NCBI GenBank assembly: GCA_040290255.1
Contig: PSMU01000005.1
Span: 1-59,948 of the forward strand
Source: Nitrososphaerota archaeon
GTDB taxonomy: Archaea; Thermoproteota; Nitrososphaeria; PSMU01
DNA length: 59,948 nt
Direction: 5' to 3'
Positions 1 through 49,579 of the stretch are shown in pieces; the first letter of the stretch is position 1, and every line of letters starts with the position of its first letter. The notes under the pieces are model-generated. The model worked only from the letters and a program-made list of their open reading frames with translations, had not been told where the DNA came from and made no database searches. The translations under genes and the position numbers were made by a program.

Positions 1-1511
1 AAGCCTTTCTTCCAGAGCTCGAGCGTGAGCGCAATGCCCAGCGCATCCTCCCGCCACGAGTACGAGAGCAGCTTCATGCCGTGTAGGTCCTCGGGCCATG
101 GCAGGCCCTGGGCCACCGCCCTCATCCAGTTGGTGCCGTCATCGATGTGAAGGAGGGGGGCAAAGATGGCGCCGTCATAGTGGTATATGAAGGGGCTCCT
201 TCTAGAGCTGAAGGGCTGCCACTCGTCCACCATGAGGTAGGCCGTCTGAATCCTGAAGGCCGTGCTGGTGACCGCGTCCAGCTCCCAGGCCTGCGAGGCA
301 TTCGAGGGCAGGAGCACGTTCAGCCCCGTCAGGGCGCCCAGCCAGGCCGAGAGTTTAGCGGGAGCGAGCAGGGCGCCTCGATCCGCGACGAATCCCGTTA
401 ACTTCACAGAGGCATCGTGAAGGGCCGCGAGCTCCCCCGGCCCCATGTAGCTGGAGAGCCTGGCGCCGTCGAGCAGCGCGGGAAGCGAAGAGAGCGACGA
501 GAGCAGTAGCCCCACGAGCGTCAGCGCGTAGGCGACCCTCTCCAGGCTCAGCTCCACCACGGCCTCCTCCTTCCGCCTTATCGGCGAGGCAAGCCCCTTC
601 AGCAGCGGGACAGAGCAGCTTCCCAGGGCCAGGGCCCCGGGGAGCGCTATGAGAAGGTATGAGGGCGAGAGCGGCGAGAGGAGCAGCCCGAGGAGCGGCC
701 AGAGCGCCAAGGGTGCCAGCGCCTGCCTCCTCGTGTAGTAGAGGCCGAGGAGCCCACCAAGGCAGAAGAGCAGCGAGAGCAGCAGGGCCGCTATCTGAGA
801 AGCAACAAAGGGCGCCAGGCTCAGCTCCCTGAGCGAAGCCAGCAGGGGCTGAGGCCTCAGGGGATAAAAGAGGAGCGAGGAGCCTACGCTCGAGAGGAGG
901 AGCGCGAGCGCGTAGTTGAGCTCTTCGGCGCTTTTCCTCATCAGCAAGAGCAGGGCCCAGGCCAAGAAGTAGGGGGCAAGCAGCAGGGCTATGCCGGGCA
1001 TCTCCCAGCCCAAAAGCGCCGAGAGCACAAGGGAGGCGGCGAAGGAGGCCCTGCTCCTGCCCAAGAAGCTGAAGAGCGAGAGGGCGAGGAGGAGCGTCGT
1101 TATGGCCAGAACGAAGAGCAGCCCATAGTCCCCCAGCAGTAGGGGCCCATACAGCGGCGGCAACAAGGAGGAGGCCAGGGCCGCGGCCAGCGAGGACCAC
1201 GCGCTTTTGGTGAGGGCGTAGCTCGCCGCCAGCGAGGAGAGCGCGACCAGGGCGAAGAGGGAGGGGGCGAGGAGCCTGAAGGCGTCGAGGGACTGCAGGC
1301 CCAGGCCCCAAAGCGCGAAGGCCAGCAGCGTGCTGGGCCCCTGCGAAAACGGCCGCATAGACCCGCGCAGCTCCTGCAAGAGCATTACGCTGTAGGGGGC
1401 CAACGGGCCCGGGAGAAGGGGAGAAGAGAGCTGCAGCCATGCGCCATAGCCCGCCAGAATGCAGGTGGCCAGCGCTAGGCCCAGGCCCAAGCGGCCTGCA
1501 ACTCTCTTCAT
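1..1511 (-). CDS. Multi-pass membrane protein with C-terminal soluble domain, partial (runs off the window start); possible GT-C-type glycosyltransferase or partner
   Basis: ATG at 1511 overlaps the upstream TGA (ATGA). Begins MKRVAGRLGLGLALATCILAG and the same frame is open at the window edge (..SWREDALGIALTLELWKKG). Many Leu/Ala-rich helices. Absent from the ORF track because there is no stop in the window. Confidence 0.7.
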   Translation of the reverse strand, partial: MKRVAGRLGLGLALATCILAGYGAWLQLSSPLLPGPLAPYSVMLLQELRGSMRPFSQGPSTLLAFALWGLGLQSLDAFRLLAPSLFALVALSSLAASYALTKSAWSSLAAALASSLLPPLYGPLLLGDYGLLFVLAITTLLLALSLFSFLGRSRASFAASLVLSALLGWEMPGIALLLAPYFLAWALLLLMRKSAEELNYALALLLSSVGSSLLFYPLRPQPLLASLRELSLAPFVASQIAALLLSLLFCLGGLLGLYYTRRQALAPLALWPLLGLLLSPLSPSYLLIALPGALALGSCSVPLLKGLASPIRRKEEAVVELSLERVAYALTLVGLLLSSLSSLPALLDGARLSSYMGPGELAALHDASVKLTGFVADRGALLAPAKLSAWLGALTGLNVLLPSNASQAWELDAVTSTAFRIQTAYLMVDEWQPFSSRRSPFIYHYDGAIFAPLLHIDDGTNWMRAVAQGLPWPEDLHGMKLLSYSWREDALGIALTLELWKKG

Positions 1512-14800: not shown

Positions 14801-16030
14801 CTAGCCCCGCTGCGGGCTGGCCTCTAGGCTTCGCTCGCCAATAGAGGGCCGCCTGCCCTTGGCCAGGCGGGCCTGCAGGCCCCAAAGCTCTATGAAGCCC
14901 ACCGCCAAGGCCTGGTCGAAGGTGGAGCCGGAGCCGTACGTTGCAAGCCCGTGGCTGTAGAGCGGGTGGGGCGACCTCCTGCCCACCACCCTGAGCGAGC
15001 CCTTGTACAGCTTCAGCCTCACCTTCCCCTCCACCGGCAGCTGCGTGGAGGCGATGAGCGCCTCCAGGTCCTCCCTCAGCGGCTCGACCCAGAGGCCCGA
15101 GTAGACGAGCCAGGCCCAGCGCTCCTCGGCCAGCTGCTTGAAGGCCAGCTGGCGCCTTGTGAGCACGAGCTTCTCGAGGTCCCTATGGGCCTCTATGATG
15201 CAGGTCGCGGCAGGGTACTCGTAGAGCTCCCGGCTCTTTATTCCCACCGTCCTGTCCTCCATGTGGTCGATGAGCCCCACGCCGTGCGCGCCTGCGAGGG
15301 CGTTGAGCTCGCAGATGAGCTCCACGAGGCCCTTGCGCTCCCCATCGAGCGCCACGGGCAGGCCCTGCTCGAATTCAAGCTCCACGTAGCGGGGCTCCTC
15401 CGGGGCCCTCTCGGGCGGCACGCACCACTCAAGCGCCTCCTCCGGGGGCTCGTTCCACGCATCCTCCAGCGCGCCCCCCTCCACGCTCCTGCCCCAGAGG
15501 TTCTGGTCCACGCTGTAGGCGCTCCTCTTGGGCCCTATCGGGAACCCCTTCTTGGCCGCATACTCCGCCTCCATATCCCTGGTCATCCCCCACTCCCTGA
15601 CGGGCGCGAGCACCTTCAGCTCCGGCGCGAGGGCCTTGATGGTCACGTCGAACCTTATCTGGTCGTTGCCCTTTCCCGTGCAGCCGTGGGCCACGGCGGC
15701 CGCGCCCTCGCGCCTAGCCACCTCGACCAGCTTCTCCGCGATCAGGGGCCGGGCCAGGGCGGTGCCGAGAGGATACTTGCCCTGGTAGAGCGCGTTCGCC
15801 CTGATGGCCCTGGCCACGTATTGGGCCGCGAACTCCTCCTTCGCGTCTATAGTATAATGCCTTACGGCGCCCAGCCACCTGGCCCTCCTCTCTATAGCAT
15901 CTAGGTCCTCGCCCTGGCCTATATCCAGCGTCACCGTCACCACGTCCAGGCCATACTTCTCCTTCAGCCATAGGATGCAGACGCTCGTGTCCAGCCCTCC
16001 CGAATAGCCCAGCACCGCCCTCTCGGGCAT
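14801..16030 (-). CDS. argG: Argininosuccinate synthase
   Basis: YSGGLDTS, HGCTGKGNDQIRF, YSVDQNLWGRS, GIKSRELYE. Confidence 0.98.
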   Translation of the reverse strand: MPERAVLGYSGGLDTSVCILWLKEKYGLDVVTVTLDIGQGEDLDAIERRARWLGAVRHYTIDAKEEFAAQYVARAIRANALYQGKYPLGTALARPLIAEKLVEVARREGAAAVAHGCTGKGNDQIRFDVTIKALAPELKVLAPVREWGMTRDMEAEYAAKKGFPIGPKRSAYSVDQNLWGRSVEGGALEDAWNEPPEEALEWCVPPERAPEEPRYVELEFEQGLPVALDGERKGLVELICELNALAGAHGVGLIDHMEDRTVGIKSRELYEYPAATCIIEAHRDLEKLVLTRRQLAFKQLAEERWAWLVYSGLWVEPLREDLEALIASTQLPVEGKVRLKLYKGSLRVVGRRSPHPLYSHGLATYGSGSTFDQALAVGFIELWGLQARLAKGRRPSIGERSLEASPQRG

Positions 16031-16052: not shown

Positions 16053-16090
16053 ATTTAAGAGTATTGGCCAAAACGGGCCAAAACAGGCTC
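16053..16090 (-). promoter_or_regulatory. argG promoter: TATA box plus upstream 10-bp phased direct repeats
   Basis: TTAAAT (minus strand, 16058-16053) 22 nt before the ATG. GGCCAAAAC at 16066 and 16076, with a partial GGC at 16086. Confidence 0.6.
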
Positions 16091-16171: not shown

Positions 16172-16547
16172 ATGTCCGGGGCGCTGCGCGTGCCTGGGGT
16201 TCAGCTCCTCGCCCCCGTGGGTTCTGAGGGGGAGCGGTGCTCAGCGAAGGGGCCCTGGCGCCGGTGGCGGAGCTCCTCAGGGAGCTGGGCGTCCAGCGCG
16301 AAGGGCTGCTGGAGCGGAGGCGTCGCACGCTGGAGCTCATGAGGAGGGGCGTGGGGCCCGCACGAAGGAGGGCAGGGCCATCGACGCGCCCTATATCAGG
16401 GGCATCCTGGCGCAAGCGGCGGCCCTGCTGAGAAAGGAGCAGGGGCATGGGCCGCTCGATATCGCGGCGAAGTTGCTCGAGCACATGGTCGTATCCCCCG
16501 AGCTCGTGCCCTTCACGCCCGATGTGGCCTACGCCCTGCTGGACTGA
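16172..16547 (+). pseudogene. aceB: Malate synthase A remnant: N-terminal ~60 codons joined to C-terminal ~58 codons
   Basis: MSGALRVPGVQLLAPVGSEGER / VLSEGALAPVAELLRELGVQREGLLERRRRTL (frameshifted) resembles the AceB N-terminus. ARTKEGRAIDAPYIRGIL..AAKLLEHMVVSPELVPFTPDVAYALLD* resembles the C-terminus. The catalytic barrel is missing. Confidence 0.72.
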
Positions 16548-16562
16548 AGCGGCGCGGCTTCG

Positions 16563-16609
16563 ATAAAGTTAAATCCTTTGGTCAAAGAAGGTCAATATGG
16601 GCCAAAGAG
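16563..16609 (+). promoter_or_regulatory. Promoter of the HTH-ACT gene and argH, with three 10-bp phased repeats downstream of the TATA box
   Basis: ATAAAGTTAAAT at 16563-16574. GGTCAAAGAA (16580), GGTCAATATG (16590), GGCCAAAGAG (16600). Confidence 0.6.
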
Positions 16610-17298
16610 AGCCTTTTTTGGCTAAGGGGCTCCTCTCGAGGGCCGTGAGGGAGGCCGTCGAGGGCGACGATGCGCTGGCCGAGTGCCTGGCCAGGGGCGT
16701 GGCCAACTTGAGCGCCATGGCCCGCCACATCAGGCCCTCGCTGGAGGCGAGGCTGGGGCAGCGCGTAAAGCTTCAGAGCGTGGTCAGCGCGCTCAAGAGG
16801 CTCAGGGGCGCCTATGCGGAGAGGGAGAGGGGCCACCTCTCGGTGCTGGCGAAGAGCAGCCTCGACGTGAGGACGGACCTGGCCAAGCTCTCCGTGAGGG
16901 CCCAGGCCGCCTTGAGCGAGGAGCTACAGGCCAAGCTGCTCAGGCACTACCGCTCGATCCTCCAGATATCGTGGGGGCCCACCGCGCTGACGCTCGTGCT
17001 CGAGGGGGCAGCCTTCAGGGTGCTCAGGGCGCTCTTCGCCAAGGAGGACGTGCTCGAGGCCAAGGAGGGCCTCGCGGCCGTGGTGGTGAGGAGCCCCAAG
17101 GACATAATAGAGACGCCCGGCTGCATAGCCGCGCTCACGGAGCGCTTGGCCAGGGGAGGCACCAACCTGGAGGACATCATCTCCACCTACACGGACACCA
17201 TCCTCGTCGTCAGCATGAGCGAGGTGGTCAGGGCCTTTACGCTGCTGAGCGAGCTCATAGCCGGCGCCCGCCGGGCGCTGGAGGAGCGGCATGCCTAG
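16597..17298 (+). CDS. HTH + ACT-domain protein, putative amino-acid-responsive regulator (paralog 1)
   Basis: N-terminal ECLARGVANLSAMARHI..VVSALKRL; C-terminal ACT-like SP.DIIETPG..LARGGTNLEDIISTYTDTILVV. Overlaps the argH start. Confidence 0.8.
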   Translation: MGQREPFLAKGLLSRAVREAVEGDDALAECLARGVANLSAMARHIRPSLEARLGQRVKLQSVVSALKRLRGAYAERERGHLSVLAKSSLDVRTDLAKLSVRAQAALSEELQAKLLRHYRSILQISWGPTALTLVLEGAAFRVLRALFAKEDVLEAKEGLAAVVVRSPKDIIETPGCIAALTERLARGGTNLEDIISTYTDTILVVSMSEVVRAFTLLSELIAGARRALEERHA

Positions 17299-18754
17299 CG
17301 GCCTCTACAGGGGCAGGCTGCGGCGAGGGCCTTCTCCCACGGCGCTTCGCTTCGTCTCCTCGCTCGAGCAGGACCTGGCCTTCCTGGACGAGGAGCTGGA
17401 GGCGACCCGAGCGCATATAGTGATGCTGTGTGAGGGGGGCCTGCTCACGCGCCAAGAGGCGGGGGCCCTGCTTAAGGCGCTGGAAGCGGCGCGCGGGAGC
17501 GCCAGGAGGGCCAGGGGCTACGAGGATATCCATGAGCTCGTGGAGGCCGAGGTGACCAAGAGGGCGGGCGAGGTGGGCCTGAAGCTGCACATGGCCAGGT
17601 CCAGGAACGACCAGGTGGCGACGATCACGAGGATGAAGGCCAGGAGGGAGCTCCTGCGCCTCGCCTCGCTCTGCTGCTCGCTCTGCTCCACGCTGCTGCG
17701 GCTGGGCAAAAGGCATGCCCGCCTGCCCCTCATCTACTACACGCACCTGAGGCCGGCGCAGCTGGGCTCGCTGGGCCATTACTTCCTGGCGCAGGCCGAG
17801 GCGCTGCTCAGGGATGTGGAGAGGGCGCTGGAGGGCTATGAGCGCGCCAACCTCTGCCCCCTGGGCGCGGCCGCCTGCGCGGGCACGAGCCTGCCCATCG
17901 ATAGGCGGCGCACGGCGCAGCTGCTGGGCTTCCATGGGCCCCTGGCGAACTCCCTGGACGCGGTCACCTCCAGGGACTTTGTCCTCGATGCCCTGCACGC
18001 GGCCGCCTGCACGCTGGTCGACCTGGCGAGGTTGGCCGAGGACCTAGCGCTCTGGGGCGGGCCGGAGTTCGGGCTCCTCGAGCTGGGCGAGGCGACCTCC
18101 TTCTCCTCCAGCATCATGCCCCAGAAGAAGAACCCGGATGTGCTGGAGCTCATAAGGGCGAAGTGCGCCCTCATTTCGGGGCTTTATAGCTCGCTCGCCG
18201 GCCTGCTGAAGGGCCTGCCCAGCGGCTACAACAGGGACCTGCAGGAGGTGAAGCCGCTGCTGGCCGGGCTGCGGGAAGCGCAGCGCGCGCTGAGCGTGAT
18301 GAGCGAAGTGTTGAGGGGGGTCAGGCCCCACGACGGGCTGGAGCGCAGGGCCCGCGCCTCCGAGGCCCTGGCGCCCGAGCTCGTGGAATGGCTCACGCTG
18401 CAGGGCGTTCCCTTCAGGAGGGCCTACTCGCTCGTGGCCGAGCTGATGAGGGAACTGGCCTCCCGCGGAAGGGGCTTCGCTTCGCTGGGGGATGAGGAGA
18501 TGAAATGGCTGCTCAGGGAGGCCCAGCTGCCCGAGCGCCTGCTGAGTGAGCTCAGGCGCGCGCTGGAGCCCGGCTCGGCGCTGGCCAGGAGGAGGAGCGA
18601 AGGGAGCCCCAACCCCGCTGAGGTGGACCGATTGGCCAGGGCCCTGCGCGCTAGGCTGCGTGAGCTGCTGCGAAGCGTGAAGGGAAGGCAAGAGCAGGAG
18701 GCCCGCGCCAGGCTGGCGTTGGAGATGGAAGCCAGGGCCCTGCTGCAGGCCTAG
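17291..18754 (+). CDS. argH: Argininosuccinate lyase
   Basis: EDIHE, LHMARSRNDQV, YTHLRPAQ, SSSIMPQKKNPDVLE, GYNRDLQE. Confidence 0.97.
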   Translation: MPSGLYRGRLRRGPSPTALRFVSSLEQDLAFLDEELEATRAHIVMLCEGGLLTRQEAGALLKALEAARGSARRARGYEDIHELVEAEVTKRAGEVGLKLHMARSRNDQVATITRMKARRELLRLASLCCSLCSTLLRLGKRHARLPLIYYTHLRPAQLGSLGHYFLAQAEALLRDVERALEGYERANLCPLGAAACAGTSLPIDRRRTAQLLGFHGPLANSLDAVTSRDFVLDALHAAACTLVDLARLAEDLALWGGPEFGLLELGEATSFSSSIMPQKKNPDVLELIRAKCALISGLYSSLAGLLKGLPSGYNRDLQEVKPLLAGLREAQRALSVMSEVLRGVRPHDGLERRARASEALAPELVEWLTLQGVPFRRAYSLVAELMRELASRGRGFASLGDEEMKWLLREAQLPERLLSELRRALEPGSALARRRSEGSPNPAEVDRLARALRARLRELLRSVKGRQEQEARARLALEMEARALLQA

Positions 18755-18758
18755 GTCC

Positions 18759-20342
18759 TCAGCCCAGCGCCCTGGCCACGGGGCCGCGCCTGTCATGCTT
18801 CACGGCGCCCGCGTATATCCTGCCGGGCCTCGACCTATAGGCGGGCACGCCCACCGCCACCACGAGCAGGCACTCCCTTCCCTCGGCATGCGGCAGGAAG
18901 CACTCCCTGACGTCGTCATCGTAGAAGGTGAGGCCAGTGGCGCCCAGTGAGAGCGAGTACGCGGCCAGGTAGGCGAGGCCCGCCCTTATGCCCGCCTCGA
19001 GCTGGCAGGCCCTGTAGCCCCTGTTGCCCAGCCCCTCCACTATTTCGGCCAGGTCCCCCATCAGGAAGAGCACGGCGGCCGCATCCGCGCCCAGGGCCTG
19101 CTCCAGGCAGAGGTAGCCGGCCAGCTCCCTCATCTCTCCCTGGCGGAGCTGGCAGAGCTCCTCCCTCTCGGCGTCGTAGAAGTAGGCGCCCGGCGCGAGG
19201 TCCAGGACCGCGTTGGCGATCAGGTATATGTGCGCGAGCCGCCGGGAGGCGCGCAGGAAGTCGCAGGGCAGCGGCGCCGCCATAGTTCTAAGGATCGCGG
19301 AGAGCTGCGCGAGCGTTATGGGCCTGCGCGAGAACTCGCGCGCCGAGCCCCTCCTGAGGATGACCTGCCAGAGCGGCGGGGAGGGAGGGCTTACGCGGGG
19401 AAGGGAGAGGGCCGCCCTGATGCCCGGCCTCGGCCCTCCTTCCCTTACCCCCTGCGCGCAGGCCCTGGCCCACCTCTCCAGCTCCTCCCTGCTCACCAGC
19501 TTGGAGCTCTCATACGCCTCCTCCACCAGCGGATAGCGCAGTGAAGCGCGCGAGAGCGGAAGCGCGCTCGCCCTCAGCCGCCCTAGCGGGCCGCGGGGAG
19601 GGGCCCCCTGGCCAGGGCCCACCGTGAGCAGGGCGATGGCCGCCTCCTCCCTGCCATCGAGGCCCAGGAGCTCGTTGAGCCCATCATCCAGGAAGCCCAG
19701 CATCACGTATGCGCCCAGCCCCTCGGCCGCGCAGATGCAGAGCATGTTGGCCAGGATCGTGCCCGCATCCCAGAACCAGTGCCTGTACGACCTGGCTTCA
19801 TACTTCCACGCGTTTCTCCAGGCCATCGAGCTGAAGATGAAGGTGAGCGGCGCGGACGCGCGCTCCTTATCGGCCAGGGCCTCGGCCACCGCCCACCGGT
19901 GCTCCCCTTCCCTTAGCAGGTCGAGCCTGAACTCGCCGGGGTCGAAGTGATAGACGCCGGCGGGCAGCCCCGGAAGCGAAGCGCTCGCCGCATAAATCTC
20001 GGTCTCATAGAGCGCGCCCGTGGCAGAGGCGGCCCTGAAGTAGACCCTCATCCCCGGGTAGTCCTTTACCCTCGTTATGCCGGCCGAGTAGAAGAGCAGC
20101 TCCGCGACGCGCTCCAGGCCCAGGCTGCCCCCTCCCTGGCCCGTCAGCTGAAGGCCCAGCGCCGGGGCCTCGGGCCTCGGGAAGGACCTGGGCAGCTCCA
20201 GCCCAGGGGCCTCCCGGTAGACCTTGAAGGGATAGGGGTAATTGGCCCAGTCCAGCCTCCTGGAGCCCAGCCTCACGCTGACGTAGCTGTGCTTTGTCCG
20301 CTCATGGTACTCCAGCGCCTGGCGCGAGCCCCAGTTGCCCAA
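18759..20342 (-). CDS. Tandem-domain SagB/ThcOx-family nitroreductase
   Basis: YHERTKH, RAASATGALY, WRNAWKYEARSYRH..DAG; second domain RRGSAREF..RGYR..LEAG..ATGLTFYDD. Confidence 0.88.
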   Translation of the reverse strand: MGNWGSRQALEYHERTKHSYVSVRLGSRRLDWANYPYPFKVYREAPGLELPRSFPRPEAPALGLQLTGQGGGSLGLERVAELLFYSAGITRVKDYPGMRVYFRAASATGALYETEIYAASASLPGLPAGVYHFDPGEFRLDLLREGEHRWAVAEALADKERASAPLTFIFSSMAWRNAWKYEARSYRHWFWDAGTILANMLCICAAEGLGAYVMLGFLDDGLNELLGLDGREEAAIALLTVGPGQGAPPRGPLGRLRASALPLSRASLRYPLVEEAYESSKLVSREELERWARACAQGVREGGPRPGIRAALSLPRVSPPSPPLWQVILRRGSAREFSRRPITLAQLSAILRTMAAPLPCDFLRASRRLAHIYLIANAVLDLAPGAYFYDAEREELCQLRQGEMRELAGYLCLEQALGADAAAVLFLMGDLAEIVEGLGNRGYRACQLEAGIRAGLAYLAAYSLSLGATGLTFYDDDVRECFLPHAEGRECLLVVAVGVPAYRSRPGRIYAGAVKHDRRGPVARALG

Positions 20343-20396
20343 GCCCCGCCCCTCAGCGCCCGCCAGAGCTTAATATTGGCTGCCGCCTCAAGGGGC

Positions 20397-21083
20397 GTGC
20401 CTAGGCGCTCAAGCGTGGCGAGCTATGTGAGGGAGATGATCTCCTACAGGCCCGCCCTGAGGGAATGCCTGGCCTTAGGGCTGGTGAACCACAGCGCGCT
20501 CGCGCGCCTCCTGCAGAAGGAGATGGCCGCGCAGGGCCTAAGGGCCTCCCTCAGCGCCGTGAAGATGACGCTCATAAGGGCCGGCGAGGCCATGAGGGGG
20601 CAGGCGGCCTCCTACGAGGAGAAGATCCTGGCCGTGCTGGCGGGCTCCGTGCTGGAGCTCAGGTCGGACCTGGTCCTGCTCGTGGCCAGGAGGGCGGCGG
20701 TGCAGAGGGGGATGGAGGGCCTGCTGAGGCTCGCCAGGGGCGCCAGGTTCTTTCAGCTCACGCAGGGCGTGGAGGTCTTCGTCGTCACGCTCTCGAAGGA
20801 GAATGAGCAGGAGGCCCGGAGGCTGTTGGGAGGCGGCATCCTGCGCGCGATAGGGGAGCAGGCGGCGCTGGTCATCATAAGCCCCGAGGAGATCTACGAC
20901 ACGCCGGGCTTCATCGCCTTCGTCACCTCCCACCTCGCCTCGAGGGGCATAAACATCACGCAGATCCTCTCCTGCCACAGCGACACGGTGCTGGTGGTGC
21001 ATAGAGATGACGCGGCCAGGGCCTACCGCCTGCTCGATGAGCTGCTCGCCCACGCGAAGAAAAAGAAACGTTCGGAACAATAG
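20397..21083 (+). CDS. HTH + ACT-domain protein, putative regulator (paralog 2)
   Basis: GTG start at 20397. ECLALGLVNHSALARLL..AVKMTLIR; SPEEIYDTPGFIA..GINITQILSCHSDTVLVV. Directly upstream of lysW. Confidence 0.8.
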   Translation: MPRRSSVASYVREMISYRPALRECLALGLVNHSALARLLQKEMAAQGLRASLSAVKMTLIRAGEAMRGQAASYEEKILAVLAGSVLELRSDLVLLVARRAAVQRGMEGLLRLARGARFFQLTQGVEVFVVTLSKENEQEARRLLGGGILRAIGEQAALVIISPEEIYDTPGFIAFVTSHLASRGINITQILSCHSDTVLVVHRDDAARAYRLLDELLAHAKKKKRSEQ

Positions 21084-21087
21084 AGGA

Positions 21088-21122
21088 GTGAAATAAAGTT
21101 AAATGTTACAAAAATCTTAAAT
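21088..21122 (+). promoter_or_regulatory. lysW operon promoter
   Basis: AT-rich island. TTAAAT at 21117-21122 lies 21 nt before the GTG. ATAAAGTTAAAT at 21093-21104 is identical to 16563-16574. Confidence 0.6.
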
Positions 21123-21143: not shown

Positions 21144-21317
21144 GTGGCCTCGCTCAGCGCATCCTGCCCGGTCTGTGAAACGAGCCTGGGCTTGGCGAGC
21201 CCCCGCCTGCACGAGGTGCTCGAGTGCCCCACCTGCGGCGTGAGGCTCGAGGTCTCCAGCCTGAGCCCCCTCGTGTTGGAGGAGCTGCCCGAAGTGAAGG
21301 AGGACTGGGGCGAGTAG
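21144..21317 (+). CDS. lysW: Amino-group carrier protein LysW (57 aa)
   Basis: Manual translation: MASLSASCPVCETSLGLASPRLHEVLECPTCGVRLEVSSLSPLVLEELPEVKEDWGE. Two CxxC motifs and the C-terminal EDWGE. Confidence 0.97.
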   Translation: MASLSASCPVCETSLGLASPRLHEVLECPTCGVRLEVSSLSPLVLEELPEVKEDWGE

Positions 21318-21324
21318 CGCGCGA

Positions 21325-22152
21325 ATGACGCTCAGGATAGGCATCACCTACACCCTCCTGCGCAGGGAGGAGCAGATGCTTCAGGAGCGCGCGAGGGAGT
21401 TCGGCGAGGTGATCATGCTACATGAGGCGGAGGCCGTGCTGCCCCGCGCGAAGGAGCTGGACGTCGTCCTCATAAGAAACGTGGCCCACCATAAGGCGCT
21501 CTACCTGGCCAGGCTCTTCGAGGAGCTGGGGTGCGCCGTCGTGAACCCCTCTGCCGTCATTCATGAGGCGGGCGATAAGCTGCTGGCCACGCTGAGGCTC
21601 TCAAGGCGCGTGCCCGTGCCGAGATGGAGGGTGGCCATGGATAGGGAGGCGGCGCTCAGGGCCGCTGAAGAACTCGGCTATCCGGTGGTCATGAAACCCC
21701 TGGTGGGCAGCTGGGGCAGGATGGTCGTGAAGCTCAACGACCGAGATGCGCTGGAGGCGGTGCTGGAGCACCGGCAGTGGATGGAGAACCCGCTGCAGGG
21801 CATCTACCTGCTGCAGGAGTACGTGGAGAAGCCCGGCAGGGACATAAGGAGCCACGTCTTCGGCGGGAAGTTCATCGCGAGCATCTACAGGAGGGCCCAG
21901 CACTGGGTGACCAACACCGCCAGGGGCGCCATGGCGGAGCCGTGCGACTCGGAGGAGGTCAGGGAGCTGTCGCTGAGGGCCTGGGAGGCCTTCGGCCGCG
22001 GGGCCCTGGCCATCGATATCTTCGAGAGCCCGCGCGGCCTGCTCGTGGATGAGCTCAACCCGGTCATGGAGTTCAAGAACGCGGTGGCGGCCACGGGCGT
22101 GGACGTGGCCAGGAAGCTGGTGGAGCATGCCGTGGAGGTGGCGAGGCGCTGA
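21325..22152 (+). CDS. lysX: LysW ligase (ATP-grasp), LysX/ArgX family
   Basis: KPLVGSWGR, QEYVEKPGRDIR, WVTNTARG, MEFKNA. Confidence 0.95.
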   Translation: MTLRIGITYTLLRREEQMLQERAREFGEVIMLHEAEAVLPRAKELDVVLIRNVAHHKALYLARLFEELGCAVVNPSAVIHEAGDKLLATLRLSRRVPVPRWRVAMDREAALRAAEELGYPVVMKPLVGSWGRMVVKLNDRDALEAVLEHRQWMENPLQGIYLLQEYVEKPGRDIRSHVFGGKFIASIYRRAQHWVTNTARGAMAEPCDSEEVRELSLRAWEAFGRGALAIDIFESPRGLLVDELNPVMEFKNAVAATGVDVARKLVEHAVEVARR

Positions 22153-23144
22153 TCAGGGCCGCCGTGGTGGGAGGGGGAGGCTATGTGGCGGGCGAGCTGC
22201 TGAGGCTGCTGGCCAGGCATCCCCACGTGGAGATCGCCGCCGTCGTCTCGAGGACGCATAGGGATAGGCTCGTGCATAAGGTGCATCCCCATCTCAGGGG
22301 CCTGGGCCTGAAGTTCAGGGGCGATTACTCCTTCGATGCCGACGCGGTCTTCCTGGCCCTGCCTCATGGCCTCTCCATGAAGGTGGCCCGCGAGTTCGTG
22401 GGCCGGATGAAGGTCATAGACCTCAGCGCGGACTTCAGGCTCAGCCGCGAGCTCTATGAGCGCTATTATGGCCCGCATGAGGCCCCCGAGCTGCTAGGGA
22501 AGTTCGTCTATGGGCTGCCGGAGCTCTATAGGGAGAGGATAAGGGGCGCGGAGCTCATCGCCAACCCCGGCTGCAATGCCACGGCCGCGATAATAGCGCT
22601 CTACCCTGTGAAGGATGCCGTGAAGGAGGCGCTCGTGGACGTGAAGGCCGCTTCCAGCGCGGGCGGAAGGGGAGGGGGAATGGCCTCGCTGCATGCGGAG
22701 AGGGCCCATGTGGTCCGCGTCTACGCCGAGGGCTCTCATAGGCATGAAGCGGAGGTGCTGCAGGCCACCGGCATAAGGGCCCGGATCACGGCCCACGCCG
22801 TCGATATGGTCAGGGGGCTCATGGCCACCATCTACCTTCAGGCGCCCCTCGGCGAGGCGGAGCTCTTCAGGAGGTTCTCCATCTATTCGCGGGAACCCTT
22901 CGTCAGGCTCGTCAGGGAGAAGGGCTGGGGCCTGCAGCGCCTGCCCGACCCCAAGTATGTGCTGGGCAGCAACTTCGTAGATGTGGGCTTCACGGGCTCT
23001 CAGGGCGAGGGGGGCGCCACGCTCTACGCGGCCCTAGATAACCTCGTCAAGGGAGCGGCGGGGCAGGCGGTCCAGAACATGAACCTGGCCTTCGGCCTCG
23101 CCGAAGCGGAGGGCCTGGAGCAGCTGCCCCTCTTTCCGGCCTAG
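22149..23144 (+). CDS. lysY: LysW-aminoadipate/glutamyl-phosphate reductase (LysY/ArgC); probable CTG start
   Basis: (M)IRAAVVGGGGYVAGELLRLL, DLSADFRL, YGLPE, ANPGCNAT, DNLVKGAAGQAVQNMN. Confidence 0.95.
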   Translation: MIRAAVVGGGGYVAGELLRLLARHPHVEIAAVVSRTHRDRLVHKVHPHLRGLGLKFRGDYSFDADAVFLALPHGLSMKVAREFVGRMKVIDLSADFRLSRELYERYYGPHEAPELLGKFVYGLPELYRERIRGAELIANPGCNATAAIIALYPVKDAVKEALVDVKAASSAGGRGGGMASLHAERAHVVRVYAEGSHRHEAEVLQATGIRARITAHAVDMVRGLMATIYLQAPLGEAELFRRFSIYSREPFVRLVREKGWGLQRLPDPKYVLGSNFVDVGFTGSQGEGGATLYAALDNLVKGAAGQAVQNMNLAFGLAEAEGLEQLPLFPA

Positions 23145-23151
23145 CGCGGGC

Positions 23152-23883
23152 TTGAGGATGGTAAAGGTGGGGAGCGGCGTGCTCGGGCACCTCGACGAGT
23201 TCCCGGAGCTGCTGGGGGCGCAGCTGGTCGTGCACGGCAGCTCGGCGCGCGCCGATGAGCTCTGCAGGAGGCTGGGCCTGCCGGTCACAAGGCTCGTGAG
23301 CGCCTCCGGCCTGGAGTTCAGGTACACGCCCAGGCCCGTGCTGGAAGCATATGTGATGGCCACGCTGGCCGTAAACAAGGAATTGGTCGCTTATCTGGCC
23401 AGCAGGGGGATAAGGGCGCTGGGCCTCGCGGGCCCCGATGGCGCCGTCATAAGGGCGAGGAGGAAGGCGCTGCTCATAGCCGAGGTCGAGGGCGTCGAGA
23501 TGGCCATAAGGGACGACTTCTCCGGCGAGCTCGTGGCCGTTGATGCGGAGCTGCTGGGCCGGCTCATGCGCGCCTATGTGCCCGTTATAGCGCCCATCGC
23601 GCTGGGCGAGGAGCACGAGCTGCTGAACGTGGACGGCGATAAGCTCGCGCTCTTCCTGGCGAAGGCCCTGAAGGCCCAGGAGCTCACCTTCCTGAGCCGC
23701 AGCGCGCTGCTGCTGGGCGGGAGGGTGGCCGAGCGGCTCTCGCTCGGGGCCCTCGAGGAGGCCCTTCGGGAGGCGAAGGGGGGCATGAGGAGGAAGCTGC
23801 TGGCCTGCCGCGAGGCCCTGGCCTCGGGCATAGCCAGGGTGCGCATCAGGGGCCTTAACGGAGAGACGGAGGTGGTGCCTTGA
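23152..23883 (+). CDS. lysZ: LysW-aminoadipate/glutamate kinase (LysZ/ArgB)
   Basis: VKVG, VHG, FRYT, LNVDGD, GGMRRKL. Confidence 0.93.
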
Positions 23884-24977
23884 GGGAGCTGGGCGTCTAC
23901 GGCAAGAGGCTGAGGCTCGTGAGGGGCAAGGGCCCCTATGTCTGGGATGACCGCGGAAGGAAGTATATCGACGCGATAGCGGGCGTGGGCCTGGCCGTGC
24001 TGGGGCATGCCCACGAGGTGGTGGCGCGCGCGGTCTCGGAGCAGATGAGCCTACTTCCCGTGGCCGGCAACATGTTCCTTCATCGCCCGCTCGACGAGCT
24101 GCTGGAGGAGCTGGGCAGGTGGGTGAAGTATGAATTCGCGTTCTTCAGCAACTCGGGCAGCGAGGCCGTCGAGAACGCCATCAAGCTGGCCAGGCTTCAC
24201 ACGGGCAGGAGCGAGGTCGTGGCGATGGTGAACGGCTTTCACGGCAGGACGCTGGGCGCCCTGGCCGCGACGTGGAGGGAGAAGTACAGGGAGGGCTTCG
24301 GCCCCCTGCCGGGGGGCTTTCGCCACATCCCCTTCAACGATATCGAGGCGGCCCAGGGCGCCATCACCAACGAGACCGCCGCCGTGCTCGTGGAGCCCAT
24401 ACAGGGCGAGGGGGGCGTGGTGCCCGCGAAGCGCGAGTTCCTGAAGGCGCTCAGGGAGCTCTGCAGCGAGAGGGGCGCCCTGCTGATCGCCGATGAGGTG
24501 CAGACGGGCCTGAGGACCGGCAGCTTCCTGGCCTGCCAGGGCTACGGCGTCGAGCCCGATATCGTGGCCATGGGCAAGGGCCTGGCCAACGGCCTTCCCA
24601 TAGGCCTCACGCTCTCGAACTTCGATGTGCCCAGGGGAAAGCTGGGCAGCACCTTCGGCGGGAACCCCGTCGCCTGCGCGGCCGCGGCCGCCTGCCTTAG
24701 GGTGCTCAGGCGCGAGCAGCTGGTCCAGAGGGCGGCGGGGAAGTTCTTCGAGGTCAGGGCGGACAAGGCGCTCATGACGAGGGGGAGGGGGCTGATGATG
24801 GGCGTCGTGCTCAGGGAGCCCGCGGAGCCCTACATGCTGAAGCTTCAGGAGGGGGGGATCCTGGTGAACACGGCGGGCGAGAGGGTCCTGAGGCTCCTGC
24901 CGCCGCTGATCGTGGAGCAGGAGCTGCAGCAGGTCCGGGCCGCGCTCGAGGGGGTGCTGAATGAGGGAGGGCGATGA
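23880..24977 (+). CDS. lysJ: LysW-semialdehyde aminotransferase (LysJ/ArgD, class III)
   Basis: [41 protein letters not shown]. Confidence 0.95.
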
Positions 24978-25941
24978 GGCGGTGAACCTGCTCCGGCGCC
25001 TGCTGAAGGCCTACAGCCCCACGGGAAGGGAGGGCCGCGTCGCGAAGCTGCTCCTCGAGGAGCTGCGGGCGAGAGGCATCGACGCATACACGGACGAGGC
25101 GGGCAACGTGCTGGCGCATAAGAAGGGGCCCGGCCCGCGGATCCTGCTGGCGGGGCATATGGATACCGTCCGCGGCTACATACCGGTCCGCAGGAGGGGC
25201 GAGGAGCTCTGCGGGAGGGGGGCCGTGGATGCCAAGGGGCCCCTGGCCTGCCTGCTCTTCGCCTTCCTGGAGGGCGAGGCCGATATGACCTTCGCGGGCC
25301 TGGTGGATGAGGAGGGGGGCTCCAGGGGCGCGAGGGCCCTCACCGTGCCCCGGCCCGAGTACGTCATCGTGGGCGAGCCGAGCGGCTGGGAGGGCGTGGC
25401 GATCGCCTACAGGGGCAGCCTTACGCTCCGCATGAGGGCCAGGGTTGAAAGGTTTCACGCAAGCTCCAGCGCCAAGGGCGCGGCGGAGCTGCTCATCGAC
25501 AGGTGGCTGAAGCTCAGCGAGGGCTTCGGGCCCGGCTTCTACAGGCCCAGCGGGAGGATCCTGAGCTTTAAGGCCAGGGAGGGGCCCTTTGCCTATGAAG
25601 CCGAGATGGTGGTCAACGTCAGGATACCGCCCGGAGCCGCTATGCCCTCCTGTGGCGAAGTGCTGGAGTGGACGCCGCCCTATGAGCTCGCGCCCACGAG
25701 GCCGCTCGTGAGGGCCTTTGTAAGGGCGATACGCCGGCAGCGAGGCAGGCCTCAGCTGAAGAAGAAGCTGGGCACGAGCGATCTGAACCTGCTGGCCGCC
25801 CGCTTTGCATGTGAGGCCGTCGCCTATGGCCCCGGCGACTCGAGCCTCGATCACACGCCCCACGAGCGCATAAGCCTGCAGGAGTACCTGAGGGCCCTTG
25901 AGGTCCTGAAGGGCGCGCTGCTGGAGCTAAGGCGTGCGTGA
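24961..25941 (+). CDS. lysK: LysW-lysine/ornithine hydrolase (M20)
   Basis: [37 protein letters not shown]. Confidence 0.95.
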
Positions 25942-48626: not shown

Positions 48627-49579
48627 TGCACTTCCTCACGGGCGATGAGCTTAGCCCTCAGGAGCTGGAGGGGCTGCTGGCCCTGGCCCAGAGGCTGAAG
48701 GAGGGAAGGGCCAAGGGGCTTGGCAGGGGGCTGCTGGAGGGCAGGAGCCTTGTGGCCATCTTCGAGAAGCCCTCCACCAGGACGCGGGTGAGCCTTCAGG
48801 TGGCCGCCCATGAGCTGGGCGCGCTTTGCCTTTCCACCTCGCCCCAGGAGCTGCAGCTGGGCAGGGGAGAGAGCGTGGAGGATACCGCGAGGGTCCTGGG
48901 CAGATACGTGCACGCCATCGTCGCGCGCGTCTTCTCTCACCGCCAGCTCGAGGCCCTGGCCAGCGCCTCGCCCGTGCCCGTCATAAACGCCCTATCCGAC
49001 CTCTACCATCCCCTGCAGATGCTGGCCGACCTGATGACGGTGAAGGAGCTCAAGGGGGGCGTTAGGGGCAAGCGCGTGGCCTGGGTGGGGGATGGGAACA
49101 ACGTCTGCAATAGCCTCATGATCGGCGCCTGCAAGCTGGGGGCCGAGGTGCGGGTGGCCACGCCCGTTGAGTATAGGCCCCACCCGGAGGCCGTGGAGGC
49201 GGCGCGCAGGGCCTGTGAGGCCTCGGGAGGGCGCCTGCGGCTGCTGCAGGAGCCGGAGGAGGCGGCGCGGGATGCGGACGTCGTGGTGACGGATACCTTC
49301 GTATCGATGGGCCAGGAGGCCGAGGCGGAGAGGAGGCTGAAGGCCTTCTTGCCCCGCTATCAGGTGAACGAGGCGCTCATGGCCCTGGCCAGGCCCGACG
49401 CGATCTTCATGCACTGCCTGCCGGCCAAGAGGGGGTATGAGGTGAGCGCGGGCGTAATAGATGGGCCCCGCTCCGCGGTTCTCCAGGAGGCCGAGAATAG
49501 GCTGCACACCACGAAGGCCCTCCTGCTCCATCTGCTCGCGCCCTGGGCGGCCCGCGAGCTGACCCCTCCTATGCCTTGA
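48623..49579 (+). CDS. argF: Ornithine carbamoyltransferase
   Basis: FEKPSTRTR, HPLQ, GDGNNV, SMG, HCLP, AENR. Confidence 0.97.
   Translation: MMHFLTGDELSPQELEGLLALAQRLKEGRAKGLGRGLLEGRSLVAIFEKPSTRTRVSLQVAAHELGALCLSTSPQELQLGRGESVEDTARVLGRYVHAIVARVFSHRQLEALASASPVPVINALSDLYHPLQMLADLMTVKELKGGVRGKRVAWVGDGNNVCNSLMIGACKLGAEVRVATPVEYRPHPEAVEAARRACEASGGRLRLLQEPEEAARDADVVVTDTFVSMGQEAEAERRLKAFLPRYQVNEALMALARPDAIFMHCLPAKRGYEVSAGVIDGPRSAVLQEAENRLHTTKALLLHLLAPWAARELTPPMP

Follow-up and report, generated by a model that had tools for sequence, protein, structure and literature searches.

Two genes, here called A and B, were studied in a stretch of 59,948 nucleotides (the window), which is contig PSMU01000005.1 (C6 below) of the Nitrososphaerota archaeon assembly GCA_040290255.1. 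Their products are probably one-component, amino-acid-sensing transcription regulators of arginine synthesis, and they belong to an uncharacterised archaeal family in which a domain of the DUF7523 type is followed by a tandem ACT module. To our knowledge, little is understood of how archaea control arginine biosynthesis. ArgR belongs to the bacteria, and among archaea the Lrp-type LysM of Sulfolobales is the case that has been characterised. No arginine regulator described for the Nitrososphaeria was found in literature searches. Full-text searches returned neither a publication on the family nor a characterised member, in agreement with an earlier note on this DNA, made from the sequence alone. 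The proposal draws on the paralogy of the two proteins, the tandem ACT fold, a conserved synteny and subfamily-specific motifs beside the promoters. The host genome comprises 1,213,694 bases (~66% GC, 91% complete), and its closest relatives are Nitrososphaeria, namely Conexivisphaerales, Nitrosocaldus and Nitrososphaera.

Proteins A and B were found to be 38% identical over 216 residues (BLASTP, E 3e-30). The two residue patterns listed in the earlier note, ECL..G..N.SA.AR and SP..I..TPG...G.N...I.S...DT.LVV, are readable in both translations, so the paralogy claimed there stands. The TPG and TDT loops are common to the two proteins, and the genome contains exactly two copies of the family. 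A maximum-likelihood tree of 52 rows placed A inside a clade of 33 rows (support 100/100), which includes members divergent from argG and members divergent from carA, from the sample of the class and from families f14, f22, f23, f35 and f39. B fell outside this clade as the sister (98/85) of L120, the protein preceding argG-argH in genome G022. These separate positions argue that A and B are ancient paralogues of different subfamilies, and a recent duplication as the origin of the pair was ruled out by the tree.

The AlphaFold2 (AF2) model of A, built on 24 sequences, had a confidence (predicted local distance difference test, pLDDT) of 88.4 and displayed helices at residues 10-22, 25-33, 38-53 and 59-85, followed by two beta-alpha-beta-beta-alpha units. 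In a Foldseek search the C-terminal ~150 residues superposed on aspartokinase regulatory subunits, with E values of 3e-8 to 1e-6 and template modelling (TM) scores to the target of 0.62-0.72. Examples are 2dt9_A (root-mean-square deviation (rmsd) 2.9 over 148 columns, TM score to target 0.72) and 3tvi_B (E 3e-8). Ninety matches had E <= 1e-3, and all of the top matches listed were aspartokinases or their regulatory subunits. The tandem ACT module suggested previously was thereby confirmed as a predicted fold, of the aspartokinase regulatory-subunit type. ACT_7 was recognised by Pfam at the C-terminus of A with a marginal 27.8 bits (gathering score 27) and in B with 37.7 bits, which is over that score. 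NCBIfam aspartokinase models aligned to the C-terminal ACT part only of A and B, scoring 27.7 and 37.7 bits where 379 is required. Searches of PDB sequences with A and with the family profile gave a marginal aspartokinase ACT match (E 0.0032) and otherwise chance matches only, and no solved structure of the family was found in them. The architecture of B is the same as that of A, with an N-terminal helical domain and a tandem ACT module. When homodimer formation was predicted with two copies of A, the median score was 0.36, compared with a mark of 0.42 and with 0.00 for all controls, a result that counts neither for nor against a dimer.

The N-terminal domain was also folded alone, on 51 sequences (pLDDT 83.9), and was predicted to be a four-helix bundle of helix-turn-helix (HTH)-like topology. 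An HTH domain had been proposed in the earlier note: the bundle and its topology are in line with this part of the proposal, which gained no significant match to a known HTH. In an exhaustive VIA search, many three-helix DNA-binding domains (Myb-type, ScpB, sigma-54 RpoN, homeodomains) were retrieved at Z 4.6-5.8, below the informative level; the weak matches include the ARR1 DNA-binding domain (Z 5.7) and the ArgR DNA-binding domain of M. tuberculosis (Z 4.7). An HTH identity is compatible with the model. With respect to DUF7523 (PF24367, function unknown), no Pfam match was obtained for A, the gathering score of 27 not being reached, and B scored 23 bits over model positions 3-35, under the same threshold (17.3 bits in the genome search). 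A and B thus appear to be divergent relatives of DUF7523 and not scored members. In most homologues the domain is matched at the N-terminus, the first ~60-80 residues corresponding to positions 1 to about 65-79 of the 158-position model. Among 20 family representatives scanned, ACT_7 was detected in 19 and DUF7523 in 16 at E <= 0.01, the latter over the cut-off in 10. A full-text search for the name DUF7523 found no paper using it.

In the window, gene A is divergent from argG, and the start of argH overlaps its end by 8 nt, which points to translational coupling of A and argH. Gene B directly precedes lysW-lysX-lysY-lysZ-lysJ-lysK (21144-25941, + strand), a run recognised by LysW-pathway or arg-type NCBIfam models. 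The Pfam and NCBIfam searches on the neighbours are in agreement with the gene order that had been read from the letters. In order to evaluate this arrangement in relatives, 80 loci were collected by a scan of genome contigs; most belong to one class (Nitrososphaeria) and are kin. argG was divergent within 300 bp of the A-type gene at 79 of them, the remaining locus being too short to judge. At 62 loci the opposite-strand run extends from argG through lysX, lysY, lysZ and lysJ, with argH inserted in some, and at four argH follows the regulator gene as in the window. A second A-clade paralogue, divergent from carA-carB, was found in four genomes of family f6.

A further set consisted of 18 strong members from other Thermoproteota classes. 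Eleven of these are located at arginine genes or carAB: five are divergent from carAB, four from argG-argH-carA-carB and one from argGH, and the last one precedes argGH in the same orientation. Another five are divergent from ABC transporters for amino acids or peptides (three with a family-3 solute-binding protein, two of the family-5 peptide type), and two have other neighbours. In family f3 a B-type protein stands alone at argG-argH (L119, L120). The homologues are thus tied to arginine-pathway genes, as the earlier note had expected. A small open reading frame (ORF) after the B-type gene in L143 was considered as a lysW and rejected, since it had no NCBIfam match at E <= 1e-8.

In Nitrosopumilaceae-like genomes the genes of distant relatives adjoin Hsp20 and CDC48, as does a second copy in genome G001. 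In these Hsp20/CDC48-linked proteins the N-terminal domain is kept and the TPG and TDT loops are absent; likewise, the loop S-P-x-x-I-x-x-T-P-G is kept in the arginine-linked members and lost in the Hsp20-linked ones. This domain pattern fits a common DNA-binding module combined with an exchangeable sensor, and regulation of the heat-shock response is a possible role of the subfamily.

The lysine half of the system that had been suggested for the window was not borne out. No match to dapA or homocitrate synthase was found in the genome, although at 91% completeness their absence is not proven, and a LysA-like match was below cut-off. In relatives the lysW cluster is found together with argG and argH. 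Given the missing matches together with this constant linkage, a role in ornithine and arginine synthesis is the economical reading, and the lysW-K pathway probably makes ornithine here, as the ornithine branch of arginine synthesis. Lysine auxotrophy is one possible explanation of the missing matches, and enzymes not covered by the models are another. It had also been stated that neither ArgR nor an Lrp-type regulator is encoded in the window. This holds: no ArgR (PF01316) was detected in the genome at E <= 1e-3, and its six Lrp/AsnC matches (PF01037) are all on other contigs.

The 12-mer ATAAAGTTAAAT is present at 16563 and 21093, exactly as reported before, and no other copy occurs in the window even with one mismatch. 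None of 100 shuffles contained at least two matches (shuffle mean 0.02), and these are the only two copies in the whole genome. A reading of the 12-mer as a regulator site is not supported by the spacing of TTAAAT. Genome-wide, 158 TTAAAT sites were counted, and the start of an ORF (>= 100 aa) was 5-59 nt away at 83 of them, with a sharp peak in the distance (17 sites at 22 nt, 30 at 22-24 nt). TTAAAT is accordingly read as the TATA box of this genome, and the regular spacing suggests that the mRNAs are mostly leaderless. The spacing rule helps in assigning start codons in this genome. The 12-mer was rejected as an operator because TTAAAT with an A-rich B recognition element (BRE) is a general promoter here; its 10-mer core, AAAGTTAAAT, also precedes mdh. 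No similarity between the two sites was observed beyond the 12 bases. At gene A the 12-mer is followed by TTTGGTCA and by GGTCA/GGCCA repeats spaced at 10 bp, and at lysW by GTTACA. The 12-mer is therefore best described as a putative BRE/TATA core promoter, and the sequences adjoining it as the candidate operators.

For the A-type protein, the candidate operator at argG is the inverted repeat TGGCCAAAACGGGCCA. Its pattern, TGGYC-N6-GRCCA, occurs at 19 sites in the genome, and only the one at argG is within 40 nt of a TTAAAT. In relatives, TGGTC-N6-GACC was found at the same position and with the same geometry. Across 86 of their argG/A intergenic regions, a TATA box and then TTTTGGTCA-N5-6-TGACC are conserved; all but one of these regions measure 50-93 bp, that of L119 being 105 bp long. 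Near 33 diverse A-clade genes, TGGYC-N5-9-GRCC was present in 12 cases (control 1.4%) and TTGGYC in 20 (control 5%).

The two subfamilies were then compared. Of the 33 A-clade genes, 23 have TTGGYC nearby, compared with none of the 15 B-type genes (Fisher p 3.4e-6); GTTACA was near 7 of the A-clade and 9 of the B-type genes (p 0.019). When all 2080 hexamers around the 15 B-type genes were counted without bias, GTTACA ranked first (9 of 15 regions, 1.46 expected; p 2.3e-6, about 0.005 after correction). All these p-values overstate the evidence, as both motifs were defined on the loci later counted, many of which are kin. The candidate motifs appear to co-vary with the protein subfamily. The signatures of helices 3 and 4 differ in parallel, being roughly ANLSA.AR with LKR.R in A-type proteins and VNYS.LAR with KMAL.R in B-type proteins. 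In a Nitrososphaera genome (G042) that has lysYZ apart from argG-lysX, the exact TGGTCAGATATGACC core was also located upstream of lysY. This copy is preceded by the same TATA/T-run as on the argG side, and a second GGTCA...TGACC pair is present.

Within the genome of the window, a few further sites of TTTGGYC and GTTACA lie near TATA boxes, and a regulon search with these two motifs near TATA boxes revealed no further arginine gene. Neither motif is present in the promoter regions of argF and carA, the latter on contig C4. Since argF has no TATA box of its own, its control is probably different from that of argG, argH and lysW. At C3:357740-357780 the sequence GTTACAAAAGCTTAAATCC has the geometry of the lysW promoter, where GTTACA directly adjoins the BRE/TATA. 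Downstream of it are a 48-aa ORF, a 171-aa ORF and ORFs that resemble gatD and gatE as read by eye. This may be a second target of B, or a chance occurrence. In the putative promoter of gene B (20369-20385, + strand), TTAATA is directly followed by TTGGCT, which resembles an A-type half-site and whose position matches that in A's own promoter. The match hints at a possible control of B by A.

Three parts of the proposed mechanism are what we infer from these observations: binding of the N-terminal domain to DNA, the nature of the ligands and the sign of regulation. The A-type protein probably binds sites of the form TGGYC-N6-GRCCA or TTTGGYCA, which touch the TATA boxes of argG and of the A-argH operon, and the B-type protein probably binds GTTACA-type sites adjoining the lysW promoter. 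The most likely signal would be arginine, the end product, or else a pathway intermediate, with the binding site formed by two conserved loops in the second ACT domain, S-P-x-x-I-x-x-T-P-G and T-D-T. Binding of the ligand would place the protein beside the BRE/TATA or on the start site, where it would block the assembly of TBP, TFB and RNA polymerase. The expected outcome is end-product feedback repression together with autoregulation, repression being the most likely mode. A circuit with two sensors, A and B, is plausible.

Several results weigh against A and B being arginine regulators that act in this manner. The N-terminal domain had no match at E <= 1e-3 among the PDB entries searched with Foldseek, and the best score of the VIA search (Z 6.2) is too low to tell a true relative from a common arrangement of helices. 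In a Pfam scan of 51 N-terminal domains no HTH family recurred, and only DUF7523 did (10 of 51). The promoter of A in the window carries direct GGTCA repeats and not a strict inverted repeat. At lysW there is a single GTTACA, a hexamer with 84 copies in the genome, and the motif statistics share the circularity mentioned above. Moreover, 7 of the 18 members from other classes do not adjoin arginine genes, and any of the six Lrp/AsnC-type proteins of the genome could be the real arginine regulators.

The lack of a proven DNA-binding fold in the N-terminal domain would also suit a different function, in which A and B are free-standing allosteric subunits of a pathway enzyme (LysZ, ArgG or carbamoyl-phosphate synthase) and their N-terminal helices dock on the enzyme without binding DNA. 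The nearest structural matches of the ACT module are aspartokinase regulatory subunits, and in aspartokinase the beta subunit binds the catalytic subunit; the NCBIfam aspartokinase model TIGR00656 aligns weakly back to residue 48 of A (E 0.0073); and LysZ and aspartokinase are of the same kinase superfamily. However, no enzyme is a constant partner, the neighbours being argG, carA, lysW, ABC transporters or Hsp20. The prevailing arrangement, in which the genes diverge over 50-93 bp and conserved repeats adjoin the TATA box, is characteristic of transcription factors that regulate their own genes and not of enzyme subunits, and the motif changes with the protein subfamily. An enzyme subunit is consequently considered improbable. 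It is less probable still, and indeed very unlikely, that the linkage is inherited gene order of no regulatory meaning, with core promoters as the only conserved AT-rich sequence and an unrelated amino-acid-binding role for the proteins. The kinship of most of the 80 loci would allow for this, and TATA/BRE elements account for part of the conservation. Nevertheless, the linkage recurs across several classes with different operons (argG-lysW..., argGH-carAB, carAB alone), and the GC-containing TGGYC...GRCC is neither TATA nor BRE and is rare in controls. In addition, the repeat core was copied to the new lysY promoter when the operon split.

If A and B are indeed transcription regulators of arginine synthesis, their signals need not be split. 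Both could sense arginine, B having been recruited when an ancestral argG-lysW operon broke, or one of them could have its main targets in other parts of the genome. In relatives one such protein alone is encoded opposite the whole argG-(argH)-lysWXYZJ operon, in family f3 only a B-type protein stands at argG-argH, and the loops TPG and TDT are shared. The GTTACA of the same geometry before an unrelated operon at C3:357740 (small ORF, gatD, gatE) would fit an action elsewhere. On the other hand, A and B are deeply diverged (separate clades) and their promoters carry different candidate sites, as is expected of separate inputs or outputs. Control without split signals is a serious possibility, if a doubtful one.

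The family was found to be large. A HMMER search of 1.84 billion cluster representatives gave 870 relatives at E <= 1e-3, each standing for a cluster at 50% identity, and 289 at E <= 1e-10. Nearly all members are 200-245 aa long and matched over their full length; a few have ~480-510 aa. In three of these long proteins (P0078, P0083, P0112) the query matched in two or three stretches each. Pfam found two DUF7523 stretches in P0112, with ACT matches in its first half, and its matches in P0078 and P0083 were confined to the C-terminal half. Of the 41 genomes in the class sample, 37 had a family match; in a sample of 201 genomes from the whole of Thermoproteota the number was 92 (87 of the 174 of good quality). 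Among 14 control genomes, a DUF7523 match was detected in Haloferax volcanii. The accessible text of the 2026 GapMind preprint mentions other ACT proteins and not the family of A and B.

Similarities to three known systems were observed. LysM of Saccharolobus solfataricus is reported to be an Lrp/AsnC (FFRP) activator of lysWXJK (PMC3597687). It resembles A and B as a small archaeal one-component regulator with a DNA-binding and an ACT-like (RAM) domain and an adjoining LysW-pathway operon as its target, DNA binding being presumptive in A and B. In contrast to LysM, A and B had no match to HTH_AsnC or AsnC_trans_reg (PF01037) at E <= 0.01 in Pfam, and they are predicted to have two aspartokinase-type ACT domains in place of one RAM. 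Lrp-type regulators are about 150 aa long, whereas A and B have about 225-235 aa, an N-terminal domain of the DUF7523 type and other candidate operators. With ArgR they likely share end-product control of arginine genes and autoregulation via palindromes that overlap promoters, and the N-terminal domain superposes weakly on the DNA-binding domain of ArgR (3ere_D; Z 4.7, rmsd 2.2 over 51 residues). There is no sequence relationship, however, Arg_repressor (PF01316) having no Pfam match in A or B, and the predicted sensor is a tandem ACT module instead of the C-terminal oligomerisation and arginine-binding domain of ArgR. The beta subunit of aspartokinase (2dt9, 2zho, 3ab4) has in common with them the tandem ACT fold, Pfam ACT_7 and a conserved Pro-Gly loop after the first strand. 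Unlike it, A and B lack a kinase domain, carry an extra N-terminal helical domain and are found with arginine genes, not with asd, lysC or thrA.

The coordinates of the features are given in the table. The start of gene B is likely GTG 20415 or TTG 20376; its reading frame is open over 19947-21083, and P0035, a metagenome homologue 96% identical to B, has 13 extra N-terminal residues. The gene of a SagB-type nitroreductase stands between the A-argH unit and the unit of B and lysW-K. Between argG and A, a frame on the + strand (16237-16548) shifts after about 16365 and ends at TGA 16546-16548, and it looks like a frameshifted gene remnant. A malate synthase remnant was considered and rejected, given only a weak MS_N match (E 0.0036) below cut-off. 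Because of this remnant, the argG/A intergenic region of the window has 566 bp, as against the 50-93 bp of nearly all relatives.

Table. Positions of genes, promoter elements and candidate operators in the window, with the predicted domains of A (residues) and the members adjoining Hsp20/CDC48 (locus coordinates)
Feature	Position	Strand	Evidence and remarks
argG (argininosuccinate synthase)	14801-16030	-	Pfam Arginosuc_synth 5e-72, Arginosuc_syn_C 5e-86; divergent from gene A
argG TATA box, TTAAAT	16053-16058	-	22 nt before start codon; implies a leaderless mRNA
TGGCCAAAACGGGCCA inverted repeat (TGGYC-N6-GRCCA)	16065-16080	.	BRE side of argG TATA box; candidate A-type operator
12-mer ATAAAGTTAAAT, putative BRE/TATA of A-argH operon	16563-16574	+	TTAAAT at 16569-16574, 22 nt before ATG
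TTTGGTCA, then GGTCA, GGTCA, GGCCA (16580, 16590, 16600; 10-bp steps)	16577-16604	+	from TATA box to over start codon; candidate autoregulatory operator
Gene A	16597-17298	+	233 aa; Pfam ACT_7 27.8 bits, AF2 model, Foldseek, tree
Domains of A	four-helix domain at the N-terminus, residues about 10-85; tandem ACT module, residues about 88-232		AF2 model
argH (argininosuccinate lyase)	17291-18754	+	Pfam Lyase_1 3.4e-43, ASL_C2
SagB-type double nitroreductase	18759-20342	-	527 aa; TIGR03605 5.8e-49, 2 stretches
Gene B	20415-21083 (GTG, 222 aa) or 20376-21083 (TTG, 235 aa)	+	Pfam ACT_7, BLASTP against A
Second 12-mer copy, BRE/TATA-like	21093-21104	+	18 bp upstream of lysW core TATA box
GTTACA hexamer	21105-21110	+	between two TTAAAT boxes; candidate half-site of B-type protein
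lysW core TATA box, TTAAAT	21117-21122	+	21 nt before GTG 21144; spacing rule
lysW	21144-21317	+	NCBIfam TIGR01206 9.5e-20, over cut-off
lysX	21325-22152	+	NCBIfam TIGR02144 1.3e-105, over cut-off
lysY/argC type	22164-23144	+	NCBIfam TIGR01850, over cut-off
lysZ	23152-23883	+	NCBIfam NF010660, just under cut-off
lysJ	23880-24977	+	NCBIfam NF003087, over cut-off
lysK	24961-25941	+	NCBIfam NF003367, just under cut-off
argF	48629-49537	+	TIGR00658 4.7e-115; begins at stop codon of ftsY-like gene (read by eye)
Subfamily adjoining Hsp20/CDC48	L114 7885-8550; L115 8052-8717; L116 7716-8396; L111 8330-9022		~221-230 aa

On a wider scale, it is tempting, if speculative, to see in the family with DUF7523 and tandem ACT the missing arginine regulator of Thermoproteota, including ammonia-oxidising archaea, that is, an analogue of ArgR with an unrecognised DNA-binding fold and an aspartokinase-type sensor. 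A and B, with different operators and perhaps different ligands, would then split the ornithine branch (lysW-K) and the citrulline-to-arginine branch (argG, argH) between them, and the sister subfamily without ligand loops would be the Hsp20/CDC48 heat-shock regulator of Nitrosopumilaceae-like genomes. In the ammonia-oxidising lineages the family is almost invariably found opposite argG. It offers a concrete candidate regulator with predicted operators, ligand loops and specificity residues, and it may define a new DNA-binding domain. If the assignment is true, regulon prediction would become possible in uncultured archaea that are important to the nitrogen cycle.

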